From assembly GCA_012026655.1 (NCBI GenBank), contig JAAILG010001203.1, positions 1-64,000 of the forward strand: a stretch of 64,000 nt of DNA, given 5' to 3'. Shown in pieces: positions 17,808 to 31,225 of the stretch. Made by a program: the position numbers and the translations under genes. Source of the stretch: Hydrolagus affinis (lineage: Eukaryota). Within the stretch, counting starts at the first letter, position 1, and every line of letters begins with the position of its first letter. The notes below the pieces were generated by a model, which searched no databases, was not told the DNA's origin, and saw only the letters and a program-made list of their open reading frames with translations.

Positions 17808-17938
17808 ATAGCAGCGAAAGCCTTCCTCCATCCTCATCAGTAAATGACATTTCATCCATGTCAACCGATCAGACCCTGGCCTCAGACACTGACAGCAGCC
17901 TGGAAACTTCAGCAGGACCCCTCGGTTGTTGCAGGTGA
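17796..17938 (+). CDS. MAPK10: MAPK10 last exon, long (p54-type) frame: (G)[46 protein letters not shown]
   Basis: Distal acceptor cgcag at 17795; the C-terminus is near-identical to human JNK3 alpha2; adjacency to ARHGAP24 supports MAPK10 rather than MAPK8/9. Confidence 0.96.
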
Positions 17939-20900: not shown

Positions 20901-23900
20901 GTTTTAAGCTATAGTATATGTTGTGTTGTGATGCAGCGGGACATCTTGGTCCTAAGTATGAGTGGTGCCTCATTGTGTGGCTCCCCGAAGGTTCAAAGTA
21001 CTGTCCAGGCTGGACCACCCCATCTTCTTTCCCACTCTTCACAGGATATCAGCACAGCCTCTGTGCAGTGCATTCCCACAGTGTGACTCCTATTGTAATC
21101 TGAATGGATTGGAGAGATTGAGCTGCATGTTTCCACTGACTCTCAGTGCTCCAACATGCATGGTCAACAAAGTTTCATTTAAATAATTATATAATTAAAT
21201 AATTGTGGAGGCTTTAACTCAATGCCAGTGATCGGTCTAAGCAATGATATCCGTGAGCGAGTTTTGATGCTACTACAGGTGGGAAAACTTGTCATCTCGA
21301 TACTGGTCATTGGTTCATAATGGCTGCTGGGCTGGAAGATCATGCACTGCTGTTCCTCTTAACAACAACAACCTGCATTCATATAGCTCTTCTCACTGAG
21401 TTAGTGTCCTAAAGAACTTGATGCACCATCAAAGGAGATACATAAAATAATAGTGTGATCGACCATTTTGATCAACCAGACTGTGTTTATTCTCCACATG
21501 CGGTCCCACTGCACGTATATCTCTCTTCTATCCCCTTCTGTTCCCTAAGCCTTGTATGCATCAAACTTTCTCTCAAGTATGCTGATGTTATTTGCGTCAA
21601 CCACAACATCTTCCCATGCGTTCCATAAATACTGCAAAGTAACTAAAACAGCAACTACAGAAGCCATGACAACCGAAAAGAGGCAAAATTTGTGATAATT
21701 GATCACAGATTCTATGTGATATTTATCACATTTAATTGGTTATGATTTATGCAAATCCTACCCCTACCCCCTACCAATTTCTCATCTTAAACCAATATTT
21801 CATCTCTTTCTTGGAACTTGCTTTTTACCTTCTCTAATATTTGGTGAGTCTCTGCCAAAAATAAACTTGAGTGCTATCTTATGATCCTGATTAGAAAAAT
21901 TACATATCGGTGTGAAAATTGTTGGGTGTATTATGTTGCATCATCGTTGTAGCACTATCAAAGTATCCTGCTGTACTATTGAACTGATCTAATCCAATCT
22001 ACCATCCAATTTCAGCATTCATTGGTATTGAGGAAACACTTATATTTTGCTGTAATTGTGCGATTTCTTTAACTCTTATTCTTATGTGTAAGTGCGTGTC
22101 CAGAAGGTCCACAGTACCCAATGAAACCCAGACCATGATTTTGTTGTGAAGGAAAATTATCCTGCCTGTGCTGTGCCTCCTACTCCATATGCTCAGTGGT
22201 ATAATGCAAACAATAAAACCCTCAAGCTGTTCTGAACAGTTTGTTTTTCCAGTAAGCAATGCAATTTCAATTGATATTGAAATAATGACTGACCAAATGT
22301 TTGCATCCAATGAAGAGCCAGAAATTAGCCATTATAATAATGTGCCAACACTCACAATGTGTGTGCCATACTGCAGTTATTCTCCAAAATATGTATTCAG
22401 TTTATTCCTAATCTATATCATCTTATTGGTGTAGACACCCACTCAAATAATCACTGCAGTCACAGTGCCTAAGAGTAAGCATTCCCCTTTCCACTCTAAT
22501 ATTGCCAGATTGGACTGAACAACTAGGAACAGTGCTGAAATCAAGGCTTGTCTCCAGCTGGGCATTTAGCACCAAGCTCTCGCTGAAGTGGGCGCTGTTC
22601 ACCTGACGGGCTCAGTTAATAAACAGACAACTGGAATTCAAATGCTCCCATTTTTGCAACCTGGTGGAGGTTAATTGAAGGAACTTCATAATTTGCTAGA
22701 TTTATTAATCATTGTGCTCCAGATGATCACAGTTTAACTGATACAGTCGAAAAGCAAGAGCATAGGTACAGATAAGATGATGAATGTCAATTTCAGTGCT
22801 TTAAAAAGACTTCTGGTCTTTTCTGTTGGGCTGAATGTTCACATGAGTATGCCTCAAGTAACGGACTATTAAGTCCATAACACTTCAGAAGGAAAGGGTT
22901 GAATTCAGCAATCCAGAAACTCTATAAGCAGAGGATATCCCAGTATAACATAGTGAAAGATGTGCTCTGGGGAGTTGTATTTATTTTCCAGCATAATATA
23001 ACTACATATAACTAAAGAATGATGTTGCAGCTACTCTTAACTCCTCGTCTTATTGCTAATGGCTTGTCTTTTAATATCGCTGGCATGACAAGATGTAAAT
23101 GGACAATTCTTTTCTGATTTTCCTGCAAAGGTACTTGCAAAACTGTTCACCCGCAAAGTTTCATGCAGACTGCATGGGTGAAGTTAGTTCCAGGTCATGA
23201 CTGTAGGTACAGAACATTTGTAGGATAGTTTCAAACATCACGTCTACATTTACAAGGTTGACGTTTTAAAATTTTAAAAAATAAATAATCACGCTCTGCA
23301 TGAATCCTGTCTGACTCTTCTCTCAAAAAGTCTATTAACTAAATGCCTCCTATGAATTTCATGGCACAAGTCTATTTAGAGTATGCAGAATATTTCTCTT
23401 TCTCAAGGTGTGTGAAGCATTATCTGGTTGTACTAACAATGCGAGGGGATTACTGTAAAGTTTCCAGAAGTTGTCAAGAGATTGTCAAACATTTTTATAA
23501 TGATCATCTTAAGCAGAATGTACGTCTCTTCCTCTCATACGGATATGGATTTTTATTTTGGAATTGTCGGGGCGGGCATATGATAAATTAATGTGGATTT
23601 TCAATGGTTCAAAGCCCCTGAATTTAAATGGTTTAAAGAGCCATAGCAATATCAAAGTGTTTCAGTTTTCTTCAGAGAAATCACGAGCCCCATCTTGAAT
23701 GTTAATGGGTGTTTGGGAGAGAGAGGGGGAGAGGAATGGCACTCCTGGTTTGCCCTGGAGAAAACTTATGAGGTGCGTTTGTAAGCAGTCACAATGGCAG
23801 AGGGCAACTAGCTGGGTTGCAGGAAAGAAAGAGATGGAAGAGAGTTTGAAACAAAAGGAGAGGGATTGGCGAACAAAGGACTAGGAGAGGAGTTGGAGGT

Positions 23901-24637
23901 GGGTGGGAGAGGGGATGGAGGGTGGAGAATCAAACTACCGAAATAAAAAGGGAAATTACCAAAGCCAGATAATGCCTTTCTAAGTGCTTTATCATTATTT
24001 GATTAACTGACCACAAAAATATTAGTTAACAAGATAGGTTGTTTAAATAAAAATTGATGACGTGGAAAACAGTGCAGTGAATCTCCCAATGCATTACCAT
24101 ACATATAGTCAAGGGGAATAGACAAGTCATAATTGGACTCAAGAGTACATGTACTCTTTGAATACATATTCTTGTCTTTCTGACCCTGATCGGGTTTCCA
24201 AACAGATTTTGCTTTGGGGAAGAGAATTTTGTAAAAAAAATTATAAATTCATTTAAAAAAATCTTGTATTCAGACTTCTCTAAACCATTTGTCAGTCTAG
24301 CTCAGAATGTGTTCATATGTCCAGATACTTTCACTTAATGGCGGTGCAATAAGATTTAATTCGGAGACCGCACCATCGAGCTGGGGTCAGCTGCAATCAC
24401 AACTGATATCTAATGTGATTTCTTTGTGGCAAGTTTGATTTTAAACAAACTTGGTTGGTTGTTTTTTTTGTACTGTTTGTGACCAATTTTGTTAAGATGT
24501 AAGGATTAGATATGCATCCGATCCCTACACCAGTGCTTTGTAAGATAAGCTTCTCAAGGCCCAGCTCCCAGGAAAGCACCTCAACTTTTAAAAATTGAGA
24601 TTTAACAAAAAAAAATCACTCAAGATTTTAAAGTTAC

Positions 24638-24775
24638 TGTGTATGTAGACAATATATGTATGTGATTAAGAAAAATAAAAGACCTTCAAAATGGGAAATA
24701 ATTTCTCAGTTGTGAAATGATTGATCATTTACATGGCATGTTGTCATCTGTGAAACGCATGACTGTTTTGTGAAT
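24638..24775 (+). terminator. MAPK10: Candidate distal poly(A) site of MAPK10
   Basis: AATAAA at 24674-24679, three TGTA motifs within ~40 nt upstream and TG/T-rich sequence downstream. More proximal AATAAA hexamers lie at 18435, 18773 and 18952. Confidence 0.5.
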
Positions 24776-24896
24776 TGCATCCATATCTTGGACCCGAGAT
24801 GAGGTGCTGGATTGATTTAGCTACTGATCATGTTAACAAGAAGGATGTACAGATCACAAGTTTACTTTGCCACTCAAAAGCAATGATGGGGCTTAA

Positions 24897-27800
24897 GGTA
24901 CTCGGGGTTAGTGTCAAATTTCAAAGAATATCATTATAAAAAAAATTCTTTTTATTTCTTATGTTTTAGGCAAGGATTTTGACAAAGTTTCTCGTGCATA
25001 GTATTACACCACTTTGTGTAATTTGCATATAATAAGAATAAAAGGAAAACTTGTTTCTCATTCTCATCAGAAACTGGAAAGAGCTTTCACTCTCATTTTC
25101 ACACATTATCATCCACACATAAGTCTCTTTGAAATGAGTGGTTTAGATTTTTTTCTTAAATATCAGTTTCAAGAGATAAATGGCAATTATTAATTTTTTT
25201 AATCCACCTAATTAAATATTCATGACTCATTTTCTCAATTAATAAACAACATTTTGCAAATCTAAACAATTAATTTCATAGCTTTACCTTTATTAAACAT
25301 CTGTGCAAAAAATCATTGCATTACATCACTCCATTCTGAAGTTATGACAATAAAGCTGATTACATTCATTCAAAAATCACTTTGAGAAAAACAAAGGAAA
25401 ACATAACCTTTTGTTTTAACATCATGCATTCACATTCTTGTTCAAATACATGTATTTTCAATATCTTTACAAACTAAGAAATAGCACAAATTATATCATT
25501 TTGATTTCATTGATTTGATGATTTATTTGTCTATCATATTTGTGAACAATTTAAACAGCAAGTATACAAATAATTCATTATTTGTATAGTTATTTATATA
25601 ACAAAAATTAGATAATGTGGTAACACATGACAAAGGCAAGCGGTGATGATGTGAAAGTCCCATAATTTCATTACATATATACACATAACAATATTCATAG
25701 GCAATATATACATAGAAAATACAACAATATATACATGTAAACAAATATTTATATTGAATAGATAAATTAAATAATTTTATTAAATGAATTGATTGATTAA
25801 TTAATTAATATGCTCCTGCTTCATATGATGTCCCTTTGCGCTCAGCGATTTGTTTTCCTCCCATTCCTTTCTCAAACGTTCATTCTTTTTCTTTTCAACC
25901 TCACATACATCCCTTTCTGCTTCCCTTATCCTTTTTATGTCTTCCCTATGTGAAGCAAGAGTGGTATATTGAACAACATGTAGGCTTAGAGATGAAAATA
26001 ATCTGTGGCGACTTTGCTCCGCACCAGTGTTGAACATCGAAGCAGCAAGATTGACTGCAATGCGGACAACATCTGGTCCTCTCCACTGGGACGTGGTACA
26101 CCTTTTTCAAATGAGAGAATTGAAACTCATTTTGATTTTGGGTGTACCCAGGGAGACATCTCTCAAGGAGTTTAGGATCACTCAGTCGCATGAATGTCGG
26201 CAAAAGAAGGTCTAGAAATACCTCATCTAGGTGGTAGCTCTTATCCTTCATTAGCTGCCTGTCCTTTTTGTATTTACAAAAGGTGTCAGGTGTGTCGGTG
26301 CAGTACTGGTGCCGGATCTCATCAGGTACTTTGCAGTTGTGATACATCACTGCCAATATCGCCCTCCTCATTTTCTCTACAGCCTGTTTTCTTGCTTCAG
26401 TATCTTTTACTGCTGCTCTGTCCCGCATTTCTGTACAAAGTACTCAGCTTCCCTACCATCCCAGTTTCCCCTGGTGTGAGCCTCCCAGCGCCCCTCCCGA
26501 CATACTTACCATCACTCAACTTTCCTGGTGTCCTGCTCTTCAATGATTCTAATCCCTTCCTCATTCTCTTCCCTATGTGCCCTATACAATCTAGCTTTTC
26601 CACTAAGTCCCCACCCACCACCCCTTATGCATTCTTCACTGTCTCATACGCCTTGCTGTCTCCATCACTTAGCATGTATTTGTATCATAGTTTATGTTTT
26701 TCAATAGACCTTTCCCACAATTTGTTTGCTGAGGCAGCTTCCATCCCCCCACTAGTCCCCTCATAATTAATCTTACATTTGTCCTTATGCCCAGCCCACC
26801 AATCCCTGTACTTTGTACTATCCCAGTCCCTCCTATGCCCAACATCCCCACAATACTTGCTCATAACTTCCCGATCTAAAACTTCCCCAGTATCAACCGA
26901 CAATACAACCCCCACCCCAGTCAAAGATATGAATCCCCTTTTGTGCCAAGCGCCATCGAATGAGACTGCCACATCAATCATCGAATCCTTTGTCACCGTT
27001 GGGTCCTCGTCTATCATCTGTTCCCACAGTTTTCCTGCTGCCTCTGCCATTTTGTGTTTCAAGTGCCTATAAAGACAGAAAAACACAAAGAGAGAGATAG
27101 AAAATAATGTTGTAATGACAAATAATTTGAAACAAATCATTGTATGACTATAAAAATGCATAATTACAAGGAAAACTAATGTAATAAGACTCACTCCTTC
27201 AGATTTTTCCTTGAAGCAACCATACGCAGCTGAAAAGCTGGATCGCTGATGGGTGGCGCAGTTCCAAGGATCGTCATATAATCCGCCATTCCTTGTCTGC
27301 CCAGGCCAATCTCCATTGCAGCGAGAACCAACCTCCTGTTTATGTTTGCACACTGGCCAGGTCCTGGTACATTTTTTGAGGTCCCTGAAGTGTTTGCCCA
27401 CCCACACTTGCTGCATATGAGGTGGATCTGGCTGCAAAGGCCATCAGGCCTCTCATCTTGGATGGAAATATCTCCACCTTTGTTTAAAAAAAGAGAGAAA
27501 AAAAGAAAAAATCATGAAACTATATATAACATGTACACTGCCCAATTTATTTTATCATCTACATTTAATATTTCATCAATGTGAAAAATCTACATTGGCT
27601 AATATCTCCCAATGTTTGATCACGGGCTGACACAGTGCCTACATCGATATACATTATTTAACCTTCCATAAATTTCAAGCACGTAGGATCTAACTTGAAT
27701 TACACGTTTCATTTCTGAGACATATGCACATTTGATAAAATGGGAAGAATTACAAGATATTGCCATTTCCAGTCCATGGCCAATGCAACAATCATGACAA

Positions 27801-28598
27801 GCTCTTGTAATTGCACGAAAATTTGCATGTCCGATATCAACAATCAAGAGCACATAAATGTTGCACACCAGGTCTATTATCAGAAAATTCATTCATCGTA
27901 TAGGTATTCTGATGGTAAAAAGCATAGAAACTCACCTTCTGCACAACTGTGAGCATCACTGATGATGTCAGTTAGCACACCTCTCTCTATAAGATATTTG
28001 GGTAATCCTGTCCCATCCTCCATGCACGAATTTGAAGGTGTGGGACTGCACTGAAGAACTGATGCCATTCCAAGTTTTCTTGCGCTTGGCGTAAGTTCTG
28101 GTGTTTTGGGGGGTGTCAACATTTTCTCCTTGCTGTCTTTTTAGAACATGGTATTGAACACCAGCAAACCCCTTCCTCACCTTCCTACCTGGATTTCTGT
28201 ACGAATTTCGGCCCATGGTTATTGAATATTACAGATGTAAAACAAAGAAGCAGATTATAGCAAAGTTTGCAATGACAGGAAATGGCCTATAGATGGAAGC
28301 ATATATCAGAGTACTCAACTAGGTTGTACCTTTCATTAAAAAAATCAAGAAAAAATATTTAAAAATAGTGATTTTATGACTTTTTTGACAAATGCTCCTT
28401 GCAAAATTAGAACTCGGTTTCAAGGTCATGATATGTAAATTGACTGAGTTTTTTTTTAATTTTAATGACTTTCTGAATTGATTTTTCACTTGAAACTTCA
28501 GCAAAATGTTGAGAACACATCAAAGTGTTGTCATCAAACACATTTTAAACAAAAAACTGAAAAATTATTTTTCACTCAAAATTTGGGTCTGGAGTACC
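24897..28598 (-). mobile_element. Full-length Kolobok-type DNA transposon (3.7 kb), decayed
   Basis: TTAA at 24893-24896 and 28599-28602; termini GGTACTC...GAGTACC with an internal CAAATTT/AAATTTG match; internal DDE transposase gene. Confidence 0.85.
25805..28216 (-). pseudogene. Three-exon DDE transposase pseudogene (exons 28216-27936, 27477-27195, 27066-25805)
   Basis: Both introns are GTGAG..AG with compatible phases. Motifs: RKGFAGVQY, SARKL, LICSKC, INRRLV, VSFDGAWHKRG, CKINYEGTSGGME, SDGDS, LDCIGHIGKRM, GRLT, HQYC, CLPGYTQNQNE, terminal GTSYEAGAY*. At least 3 in-frame stops (26685, 26625, ~26108) and about 4 frameshifts. Confidence 0.88.
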
Positions 28599-28715
28599 TT
28601 AAGCCCAAATTTACCTTAGTACCTTAAGCCCCCCCCTTGAGGGAGGGGGAAGTAAGCTGGGTCTCCTTGGAACTGAATTGGCTCCAAGGTGATAAGTTTG
28701 GCAACAGGATGTACG

Positions 28716-29035
28716 AATAATCCTTGCATTTGATATAGCGCTTTTCACATCTTATCAACGTCCCAAAGCGCTTCACAGAATACACTGTAAACTGAATTGA
28801 CTGTATATTTGTGGGCGAATCGCAGCAGCCAATTGCGCACAGCAGTGTCCCACAAACAGTCGATGATTGAAATGACCAATTTATTATTGTGGTTTTTTTG
28901 GAGGGATTATTATTAGGCGTGTGGAGTAAGGAAACTTGCCCAAGGTTTCGCCCTGACCTGCCTGGTTTTGGACACAGGTCTCACCAGCTTGGTCTCCCCA
29001 GCTTGCAATACAAGTGCTCTCACCCTAAGCCACAG
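28716..29035 (-). mobile_element. Full-length tRNA-derived Deu-domain SINE
   Basis: Reverse complement of the 5142-5467 family. Confidence 0.88.
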
Positions 29036-29076
29036 AAGCTTAAGTATTGACCCCACCCTTTGTGGTGGTCTCGGTT

Positions 29077-29352
29077 ATAATAGTAAATCTTTGTGTTGAT
29101 ATAGCACTTATCATGTCTTCAAGACGTCTCAAAGCACTTCACAGAATATACTGGAAAGTGAAAAGACAGTATATTTTGTGGGTGAAATGCAGCAGACAAT
29201 TGCACCCAGTATTTCCCATAAACAATTGTGGATTTAGTGATAACAGTATTATGATCATTCTTTATTTTAAAAGATTATTGAGATTATTAACCCTGATCCG
29301 CCAATCGATTAACAACTGGGTTCCGATTTACTGCATATGGAGTAAGGAAATC
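29077..29352 (-). mobile_element. Older Deu-SINE copy
   Basis: Degenerate tail and Deu core on the minus strand. Confidence 0.7.
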
Positions 29353-30531
29353 TGCATAATGTTGCTGTCTGGGAGAATCTGCCTGGGAAGCCAACCCAAA
29401 TCCTCAATACACACTAGACTCTACAGATAGTCCAATTCCATTGGCTTCCCATCCCCAGTGAATCAAATTCACAATTCTCATCCTCACGTTCAAATGCCTC
29501 CGTTGCCTCAACTCTCCTTATTGTGACCCCACAGCCCCTGGCTGCTGTCTCCATTCAGCATGCATAGGCCAGTTTTGTCTTCCTGCCACCCTCTGAAACT
29601 CCATCATAGGGTTCCACCATCTCTCTCTTCATACCAAAGCTCCCTTTAAGACCAATCCCTTCAACCAAAGGTTTCAGCCAACTTCCTCTCCCATACCACC
29701 AAATTTCAGCCCCCCCCCACCCCTCTCATCGCCTCCCAACTCATGCTCCCAGTGAGATGCTTGAAAGAATTGGGATGTTCTCCCAATATGAAAGATGATA
29801 TACAAGTGTGAATTGCAGTTGGGTGTATTCTGCTGAGAATGACAATACGACATTATGGAACAAAGCAACACACCAACAAGAAGGTTTAGGTAATCCATCT
29901 GTTATTTTTTTTTATATATAAAATATGTACACTTTTTTTGGTCATGAACAAGTAAAATGGTAAAGCAAGTAAAGCGGAATCACACAAGTCAATATTTGAT
30001 CTTTAGAATCCCTCTTCCCAATAGCCTCTGTACCTCTCAGGATTCTCTCATCCCCTACAAGAAGAAGGGATGGGATGGGGGGGGGGGGGGGGGGCTTCAA
30101 AAAAAACATTGAATTACAAAAAAAAACAACCATACCACGATGCTAAAATAAAATAGCTTACATTAAGTGCAGGGTAAAAGCCTTGATAAAAAGCTTGATT
30201 GCAACACAACAATATTAATTTTTGCAGTTTAAATACAAGACTTTCATTGAAGTTTTCCTGTTTTGCTTTGAAATACATAGTCTTACAGGTGCCACTGATT
30301 TTGTTTTTAAGCTGTATACACAACCAGCTGTAACACTTAACAGTAATATAATTACACAGGAGCTTACAGGTTATAGTAACGTGGTAAGTACACAACTAAA
30401 ATACTGGCAACTCATGTTGAAATGTACTTTCTTTTCCTTCAAGGTGTTTAATGTTATTGAGTGCTATCTCCAGACAGGTGACCAGTCACCTGGTTTTGTA
30501 CTCTATAGCCACAGTCTCAATGCTTTGACCT

Positions 30532-30775
30532 TTATTGTATCCAGATGGTATTATTCCTCTCTGGTCTTCTTGGCTCCACAGTCAGGTCTCCAAATGTTGA
30601 GAAAAACTGCTCCATCTCCTTCTGTAACATTTCATTCCGTTTCTCTGCGTCCTCCCGGGCACGATCGGTGTTCCTCATTTTGATTTCCACCATAGTGTAC
30701 TTCTTCCTCTCCTGGTCCAGCTCCTCATGCAGCACCATCAATTCAGACTCCAGCTCTACGTTCTTCTGCTCCACA
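30532..30775 (-). CDS. ARHGAP24: ARHGAP24 last coding exon (coiled coil / filamin-binding C-terminus) (S)[12 protein letters not shown]...[24 protein letters not shown]
   Basis: Acceptor gttatcag; the C-terminus ...NTIWIQ matches human ARHGAP24. Confidence 0.96.
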
Positions 30776-30849
30776 CTGATAACAGCATAAAACGTGATTA
30801 ATTAAGAACAAGCAAGGAAGATGGCAAAATATTCAATGCTGATAAATAA

Positions 30850-31225
30850 TAACAATCCCCCAATAATAATAATCCTGATATTTGATACAAAGCCTTTCAT
30901 GCCAGGAGAACATCTCAAATTGCTTCGTAGGTTTTACTGTAAAATGTAGTGACTGTGTAATTTGTTGGGAGAAACCAATTGCCATCAGTGAAGTCATTAC
31001 TTGATTGACTGTTTGTGGGTTGCAGACAATGTAGTGAATGACCAATTATATCTGTGGGTTCGTTGGTTAGGACACCAGGGAGAAACTCCTTTCTACTTCC
31101 GAATAGTGCCAATGGGATCTTTGACAGCCATCTGAACAGGAAGATGTGACCTTGTTATTTTATTTCATGTCTCATACAACAATGCAGGACACTCTGGCAC
31201 TGTTTTGAAGCATCAGCCTAGATAG
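30850..31225 (-). mobile_element. Old long-form Deu-SINE (SacSINE1-like), degenerate
   Basis: Minus-strand CTGTTCAGATGGCTGTCAAAGATCCCATTGGCACTATT and GAGTTTCTCCCTGGTGTCC, similar to 33328-33789. Confidence 0.65.

Follow-up and report, generated by a model that had tools for sequence, protein, structure and literature searches.

A decayed Kolobok transposon in a holocephalan genome and its relatives among sea-urchin transposases

The 64-kb stretch of DNA analysed here (called the window) contains a 3.7-kb element at 24897-28598, bounded by TTAA|GG…CC|TTAA, which is almost certainly a fossil of the Kolobok superfamily. The reading that we prefer, with a probability of roughly 0.6, is that it is a dead copy of a Kolobok with one gene and two introns, whose low-copy family likely entered the chimaera lineage when it was transferred horizontally, long ago, from a marine invertebrate of echinoderm type.

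The element lies, as the first-pass annotation had it, between two convergent genes. Its neighbours are the last exons of a JNK-family gene on the plus strand, which ends near 17938 and which we take from its motifs and synteny to be MAPK10, and of ARHGAP24 on the minus strand, which ends near 30534. The large ARHGAP24 exon is 97% identical to that of Callorhinchus milii, 77-80% to those of rays and 63-69% to those of bony vertebrates, and the host is therefore a holocephalan. Very abundant repeated fragments, presumably SINE-like and L2/CR1-like, occur across the window (28712-28984, 29074-29279 and about 60 other intervals).

Structure of the element and of its transposase gene

The features are listed below in the order of the window, with the evidence in brackets; A and C are organisms whose sequencing runs were mapped on the window.

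24888..24892, no strand: GGGGC, palindromic with the right flank beyond the target-site duplication and possibly common to other copies (indirect contig-end evidence)
24893..24896, no strand: left target-site duplication TTAA (sequence)
24897..24921, plus strand: left (3') terminus, with the 7-nt perfect terminal inverted repeat (TIR) GGTACTC and an AAATT box (sequence, organism A contig depth)
24897..25804, minus strand: AT-rich (25% GC) 3' non-coding and subterminal region with polyA-signal-like hexamers
27066-25805, minus strand: exon 3, with catalytic D, CCHC finger (one Cys lost), D, CxxH, second finger, E and helical C-terminus (tblastn, Pfam)
27194-27067, minus strand: intron 2, 128 nt, GT-AG (join colinear with sea-urchin proteins)
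27477-27195, minus strand: exon 2, with the CxxC of the N-terminal zinc site and an INRR motif (PF20700, E 6e-13; tblastn)
27935-27478, minus strand: intron 1, 458 nt, phase 1, after the HxC motif (GT-AG; position common to related invertebrate-type elements)
28216-27936, minus strand: exon 1, with a basic N-terminus, HxC and one frame change near 28140 (weak but colinear tblastn matches to homologues P0171, P0172 and P0176)
28217..28598, minus strand: 5' non-coding region and right terminus GAGTACC (sequence, organism A contig depth)
28599..28602, no strand: right target-site duplication TTAA (sequence; junction bridged in the run of organism C)
28603..28632, no strand: outside patch in which the right end recurs as short inverted and direct copies, among them a second GTACC-TTAA (sequence)

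The minus-strand, three-exon gene proposed earlier was recovered by tblastn, by PF20700 and by its GT-AG introns. Both introns run from GTGAGT to a pyrimidine tract and AG, homologues align colinearly across both exon joins in tblastn, and the order of the PF20700 profile is kept, exon 2 matching positions 31-117 and exon 3 positions 121-242 (E 5e-20), with a weaker piece (270-294) also in exon 3. It is fair to say, as had been said, that exon 2 emerges only after splicing: it lies in a 106-aa stop-to-stop frame with no start codon near its beginning. The announced DDE triad (DGAWHKRG, DGDS, QNQNE) and C-terminus (GTSYEAGAY) are present, and the Cys/His zinc-binding N-terminus is visible as sequence motifs, HxC in exon 1 and CxxC in exon 2.

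Four frame changes (near 28140, 26423, 26125 and 25865) and three in-frame stops (26685-87, 26625-27 and 26107-09) interrupt the gene, three of the frameshifts and all the stops falling in exon 3. The spliced frame, thought earlier to be reconstructible, reads through as a protein of 610 aa with 7 X at the breaks, which aligns end to end with echinoderm proteins. The residues D220, D319, C345, H348, H434, H445, C448, C454 and E503 (numbering of P0171, a Lytechinus variegatus homologue), invariant or nearly so in 110 homologues, are all kept. In the CCHC finger that follows the first D, which is intact in all close homologues, C, H and C are kept and the second C has become V in this decayed copy. 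Judged from its sequence, the copy is full-length but dead, given its 4 frameshifts and 3 stops. Over 27972-28176, a contig of organism C matches the window with 0 substitutions but 17 gap letters; the frame break of exon 1 may have arisen very recently or be specific to this assembly.

At the ends of the element, the first-pass annotation had described TTAA|GGTACTC…GAGTACC|TTAA around 3.7 kb, and both TTAAs and the perfect 7-nt inner inverted repeat GGTACTC/GAGTACC were found at these positions. Of the 760 pairs of TTAA sites that lie within 3 kb of the gene, this one ranks best; a pair with at least 7 bases and an RR start was obtained in 35 of 1000 Markov resamples, and the ends taken alone are moderately significant. 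The call is further backed by the AAATT box, which aligns further inside both ends and is also present in the termini of relatives, and by the rise of contig depth in the bins that hold both ends. The non-coding parts of the element have 25-33% GC. The claim that neither a KolX gene nor long direct repeats are present held, in that 14 other frames of the element, searched for KolX or another accessory gene, gave no Pfam match below E 0.1 and the longest direct repeat is 32 nt; a badly decayed remnant of a second gene may lie in the non-coding parts. Rfam gave 0 matches in 24000-30000, and no second copy of the element was found within the 64-kb window. The piggyBac superfamily was ruled out, the termini being RR..YY and not YY..RR and the transposase matching PF20700. 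Transposase-only Kolobok families with a CCHC finger, known as the Kolobok5 and solitary families, to which the element is compared below, are probably what RepeatMasker classes as 'Kolobok-Hydra'.

The hallmarks of Kolobok, as defined by Kojima & Bao (2022; PMC9587614), are present in the element: a TTAA target-site duplication (for the window copy only), 5'-RR...YY-3' termini with a short TIR (GG...CC, 7 nt perfect), and a DDD/E core with the C/DxxH signature and a zinc finger before the last E. Neither the AG/AGGRR ends and T2-type catalytic motifs of Kol0/T2 (the element has GG ends and is unlike Kolobok_1_XT and 2_DR) nor the long terminal direct repeats or accessory nuclease or helicase of KolobokP, D, E and H were seen. 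Like the element, the transposase-only families with CCHC after the first D (PMC9587614; Kolobok_24_HMa, Kolobok_1_LHu, Kolobok_3_DeSi, Kolobok_3_Aplcal and Kolobok_1_AdSt in Data S5) have a TTAA duplication, GG..CC termini, the motifs DGxWxxRG/DGDS/CxxH/QNxNE, two zinc fingers and no accessory gene; compared by eye with these invertebrate families, the element differs in its vertebrate host and in having only 7 perfect TIR bases. Its motif set had been called mainly invertebrate and unlike the vertebrate T2 type, and a by-eye comparison with Data S5 agrees: DG(T/A)WxxRG/DGDS/QNxNE is found in Hydra, ant, tick, Aplysia and rotifer families, and frog and fish families carry DGxxDxPG-like motifs. 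According to the available part of PMC6004289, the Kol0/T2 elements of Xenopus and fish (Kolobok-1_XT, XKol) share with ours a TTAA target, RR termini and a vertebrate host, but have AG/AGGRR ends, a length of 6.8-13.9 kb, a KolX gene, other catalytic motifs and no CCHC.

An AlphaFold model of the intact homologue P0171 (pLDDT 92) is closest to ISCth4 (IS256/Mutator), then to the Hermes (hAT) and P-element transposases, with E values of 4e-4 to 5e-2 at only 10-12% identity and TM 0.2-0.5. These matches fit the C/DxxH group, to which the three belong, and do not choose between cut-out and copy-out chemistry. By analogy with the superfamily, a spliced mRNA would have given a zinc-binding transposase of ~610 aa with an RNase-H fold; this protein would have bound the short termini that start with GG, cut the element free (cut-and-paste is taken as the default) and inserted it at TTAA, the 4-nt stagger leaving the target duplication.

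Relatives of the transposase and origin of the element

The best named matches of the exon-3 fragment are in Diadema and Lytechinus, at about 50%. The read-through protein is 48% identical to L. variegatus P0171 over 619 columns and 46% to D. setosum P0176, its end-to-end identity with echinoderm proteins being 39-48% (with X at breaks). Two annotated host proteins with a 'Mutator-like transposase domain' (PF20700), XP_072169249.1 of Diadema setosum and XP_041472696.1 of Lytechinus variegatus, are 46-48% identical to it end to end and share its inserts, its C-terminus and its clade; they are annotated as intact, unlike the broken window copy. A profile search was headed by Lytechinus, Diadema, Strongylocentrotus and Holothuria, with arthropods far lower. 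There was no vertebrate among the organism-labelled matches listed (20 proteins in the exon-3 search, 70 in the profile search); vertebrate members may be among the 150 best cluster representatives, which carry no organism labels.

Relatives are also encoded at 80 metagenome loci, with about 33-39% identity in the best 30 and nearly always 30-39% among those of comparable length. At the DNA level their similarity to the element is short only (77% over about 100 nt, 85% over 40 nt). TTAA|GG...CC|TTAA elements of 3.0-3.4 kb, and with them the GG start, were found at 12 of the 80 loci, and in 22 of the 37 loci tested, many of them near-copies, a phase-1 intron stands where the element has intron 1. 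The element had been thought to represent a possibly undescribed single-gene family. It does have one gene, but this is not new: a single-gene, intron-containing design was rejected as a novelty, related invertebrate elements sharing both the one gene and intron 1. In four relatives (L061, L062, L070 and L077) the first catalytic D is immediately preceded by a long acidic insert rich in D, E and S, and several copies of such a transposase are clustered at L061. Among viral contigs, no relative was present in 13 pattern matches.

Rows for the trees were chosen for their similarity to the window protein, which was entered with X at its breaks, and outgroups were added. The window protein grouped with 8 echinoid proteins with support of 99/97 (LG+G4, 21 rows), 97/96 (mixture model) and 90/97 (14 rows), and in the same three trees it was sister to D. 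setosum P0176 (97/95, 98/94 and 90/93). Holothuria fell outside this clade in four analyses, the fourth being a 50-row quick-search tree with the same placement (SH-aLRT 99 and 94). AU tests, in which the groups were taxonomic but were tested after the first tree was seen, rejected a clade of all named echinoderms that excludes the window protein (p 0.003 and 0.018 with 21 rows, unnamed rows also being forced out; p 0.031 with 14 rows) and were borderline for an echinoid-only clade (p 0.072 with 21 rows, 0.047 with 14). The nearest protein is about 1.1 changes per site away, so that no sampled species is a recent donor. Diadema alone contributes three deep lineages to the clade, and ancient paralogy is therefore real within it.

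We lean towards horizontal transfer from an echinoderm-type invertebrate into the chimaera lineage, rather than vertical descent, as the history of the element, because of its nesting among sea-urchin lineages, its patchy distribution, the diet of chimaeras and a precedent. Chimaeras eat echinoids, which the available part of PMC13602110 reports from 18% of C. milii tracts. The precedent is Harbinger-Snek, described in the available part of PMC8437027 as transferred from sea urchin to sea krait. It too is an element of a marine vertebrate with its nearest relatives in sea urchins, but it belongs to another superfamily and shows ~90% DNA identity and a massive expansion, against 47% protein identity and few copies here. 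Transfer had been put forward earlier as a candidate explanation; the nesting in the tree speaks for it, and the transfer itself is unproven. Counting against it are the 46-48% identity of the closest invertebrate protein, a distance compatible with a split of deuterostome age, the borderline AU result for an echinoid-only clade, the deep lineages of Diadema, the under-representation in protein collections of vertebrate transposases with introns and stops, and the seeding of the later searches with sea-urchin proteins.

The same dead copy could instead descend vertically from an old deuterostome lineage that survived in holocephalans, other chordates having lost it or carrying it masked or unannotated. 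We regard this as the less probable history, to be taken seriously all the same. The identity of 46-48% with its long branches, the deep paralogous lineages within one sea-urchin species and an intron 1 that is ancient across the sub-lineage are all consistent with it, and patchy distributions of vertebrate transposable elements often reflect ancient loss, according to the available part of PMC9004415. It would however require several lineages to pre-date the echinoderm-chordate split, since the window falls inside the echinoids and the holothurians outside; no named chordate protein is among the matches listed; and holocephalan genomes are reported, in the parts of PMC4350176 and PMC6817897 available, to be poor in DNA transposons.

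Other copies, shared insertion and sequence outside the ends

Parts of the element occur in 12 sequencing runs, each with at most 41% of its words and none listed as RNA. Of these, three DNA runs (organisms A, B and C) were mapped on 22000-31000 at 85%, together with one RNA run, and classes of pieces were grouped by eye from 24 pieces of ~200,000 records, one SINE-overlapping piece being left out. The flanks are present in organisms A, B and C, with 75/4536, 33/3210 and 0/469 differences respectively (0-1.7%; pieces shown), and none of the three can therefore be a donor. A near class of element pieces (24/1160 differences in A, 4/651 in C) is read as the same insertion as that of the window, and a far class (33/501, 24/384 and 57/1074; 5.3-6.6%) consists of other copies of the family. 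The right junction is bridged in organism C, with 32 letters inside and 139 outside; a flank contig of organism A enters the left end by 21 letters, below the bridging threshold. Among the joints and loose ends listed, which SINE matches at 28716-29279 filled, there was no empty site, no splice joint and no flank or TTAA duplication of another copy.

Mobility of the family is seen in these dispersed copies, that is, in pieces about 5-7% different in three organisms and in a depth at the ends above that of the flanks. In organism A, where depth is not to be equated with copy number, it is ~37 in the flank, 56-87 over exons 2-3 and 320-350 at the ends (about 9x the flank at 24929, in the left end, and about 8x at the right end). 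Two different contigs cover the same exon stretches in this organism, the 26125 frame break is missing from one contig class in A and B, and the 26107 stop is missing from both organisms. As far as depth goes, organism A has a few coding copies and more ends, and this excess of ends over the coding middle suggests non-autonomous derivatives. In the three DNA runs, contig depth over 25010-25310 is 14-60 times that of the flank, above the ends of the element; a higher-copy sub-repeat, part of a MITE or AT-rich noise are possible causes. In one metagenome of a fish gut, 34% of the words of the element are present, probably as host DNA, against almost none in two runs of the same study.

Flanks that are the same at 0-1.7% and other copies 5-7% apart point to an old, low-copy, extinct family. 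It would have arrived, undergone a modest burst before the sampled chimaeras split, and then decayed neutrally, its spread having ended, we infer, several times longer ago than the split of the sampled species.

Two features overlooked in the first-pass annotation lie beyond the element. The inverted match runs 4-5 nt past both TTAAs, and, 25 nt further out, the right end is repeated as a 14-nt copy with a second TTAA. The outside patch is also present in the junction contig of organism C and is thus not an assembly error; it is likely a templated repair scar at a broken end. With the patch removed, the target reads as a 14-nt palindrome. The element may then be real but have a longer target or longer ends, either because GC-rich palindromes around TTAA are preferred or because an outer terminus takes in GGGGC and the second TTAA, and we consider this unlikely. 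A palindrome extending 4-5 nt past the duplication is rare in the window, 5 of its 440 TTAA sites having 4 such outer bases and 1 of 440 having 5. The flank contig of organism A stops at 24917 and the pieces of organisms B and C reach 42 letters from 24929; these stops fit a shared 30-mer starting at 24888 and hint, indirectly, that other copies share GGGGC. Some relatives (loci L009, L011 and L034) carry CTTAA inside the TIR, where it lies 8 nt inside the true duplication. Against longer ends, no duplicated target flanks them, related elements end in plain TTAA|GG with unrelated flanks, and the contig ends are indirect evidence that could have other causes.

In the RNA run, minus-strand reads cover exons and introns alike at 0-3x, and five molecules start at the T-run at 28449, probably by internal priming. 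We read this RNA as read-through or pre-mRNA and not as proof of expression. The strand of the RNA switches about the left end of the element, all at very low depth, with plus-strand reads on the MAPK10 side and minus-strand reads over the whole element and the last exon of ARHGAP24. Two other readings, domestication of the transposase gene and contamination of the assembly by invertebrate DNA, suggested by the spliceable gene between host genes, the invertebrate-like protein and the trace minus-strand RNA over the element, are very improbable and largely refuted, the former by the seven breaks, the intact ends, the several copies and RNA that spans the introns too at or below 3x, the latter by the right junction bridged in an independent run and by chimaera flanks in three organisms.

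Novelty and significance

No published description of this family, or of a prey-to-predator transfer into holocephalans, was found in the open literature. The main text of Zhang et al. 2020 (PMC7070016) has no Kolobok, shark or chondrichthyan term, and the supplements of Kojima & Bao (PMC9587614) have no Callorhinchus, Chimaera, Hydrolagus, Diadema or Strongylocentrotus term. Within the open literature searched, the element is probably the first-noted vertebrate member of the CCHC, transposase-only Kolobok branch. It belongs to a known superfamily, of which it is a new member, and carries a credible, old signal of transfer; neither its mechanism nor its architecture is new.

Taken as a whole, the preferred history would run as follows: an invertebrate-type Kolobok, introns included, passed from a sea urchin or other benthic echinoderm prey into the chimaera germ line, spread briefly and died, perhaps with an extended, GC-rich palindromic TTAA target. 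We give even odds to this scenario in full. If true, it would be a prey-to-predator transfer into a lineage almost devoid of DNA transposons.

The vertebrate Kolobok families that we found described are of the KolX-bearing T2 type, and DNA transposons are described as nearly absent from chimaera genomes. The presence in a holocephalan of a CCHC-type Kolobok related to those of sea urchins extends the hosts of this lineage to jawed vertebrates and provides a case in which transfer from an invertebrate to a cartilaginous fish can be tested. Insertions that chimaera species share at orthologous positions can also serve as phylogenetic markers and, in a group that evolves very slowly, as neutral clocks.
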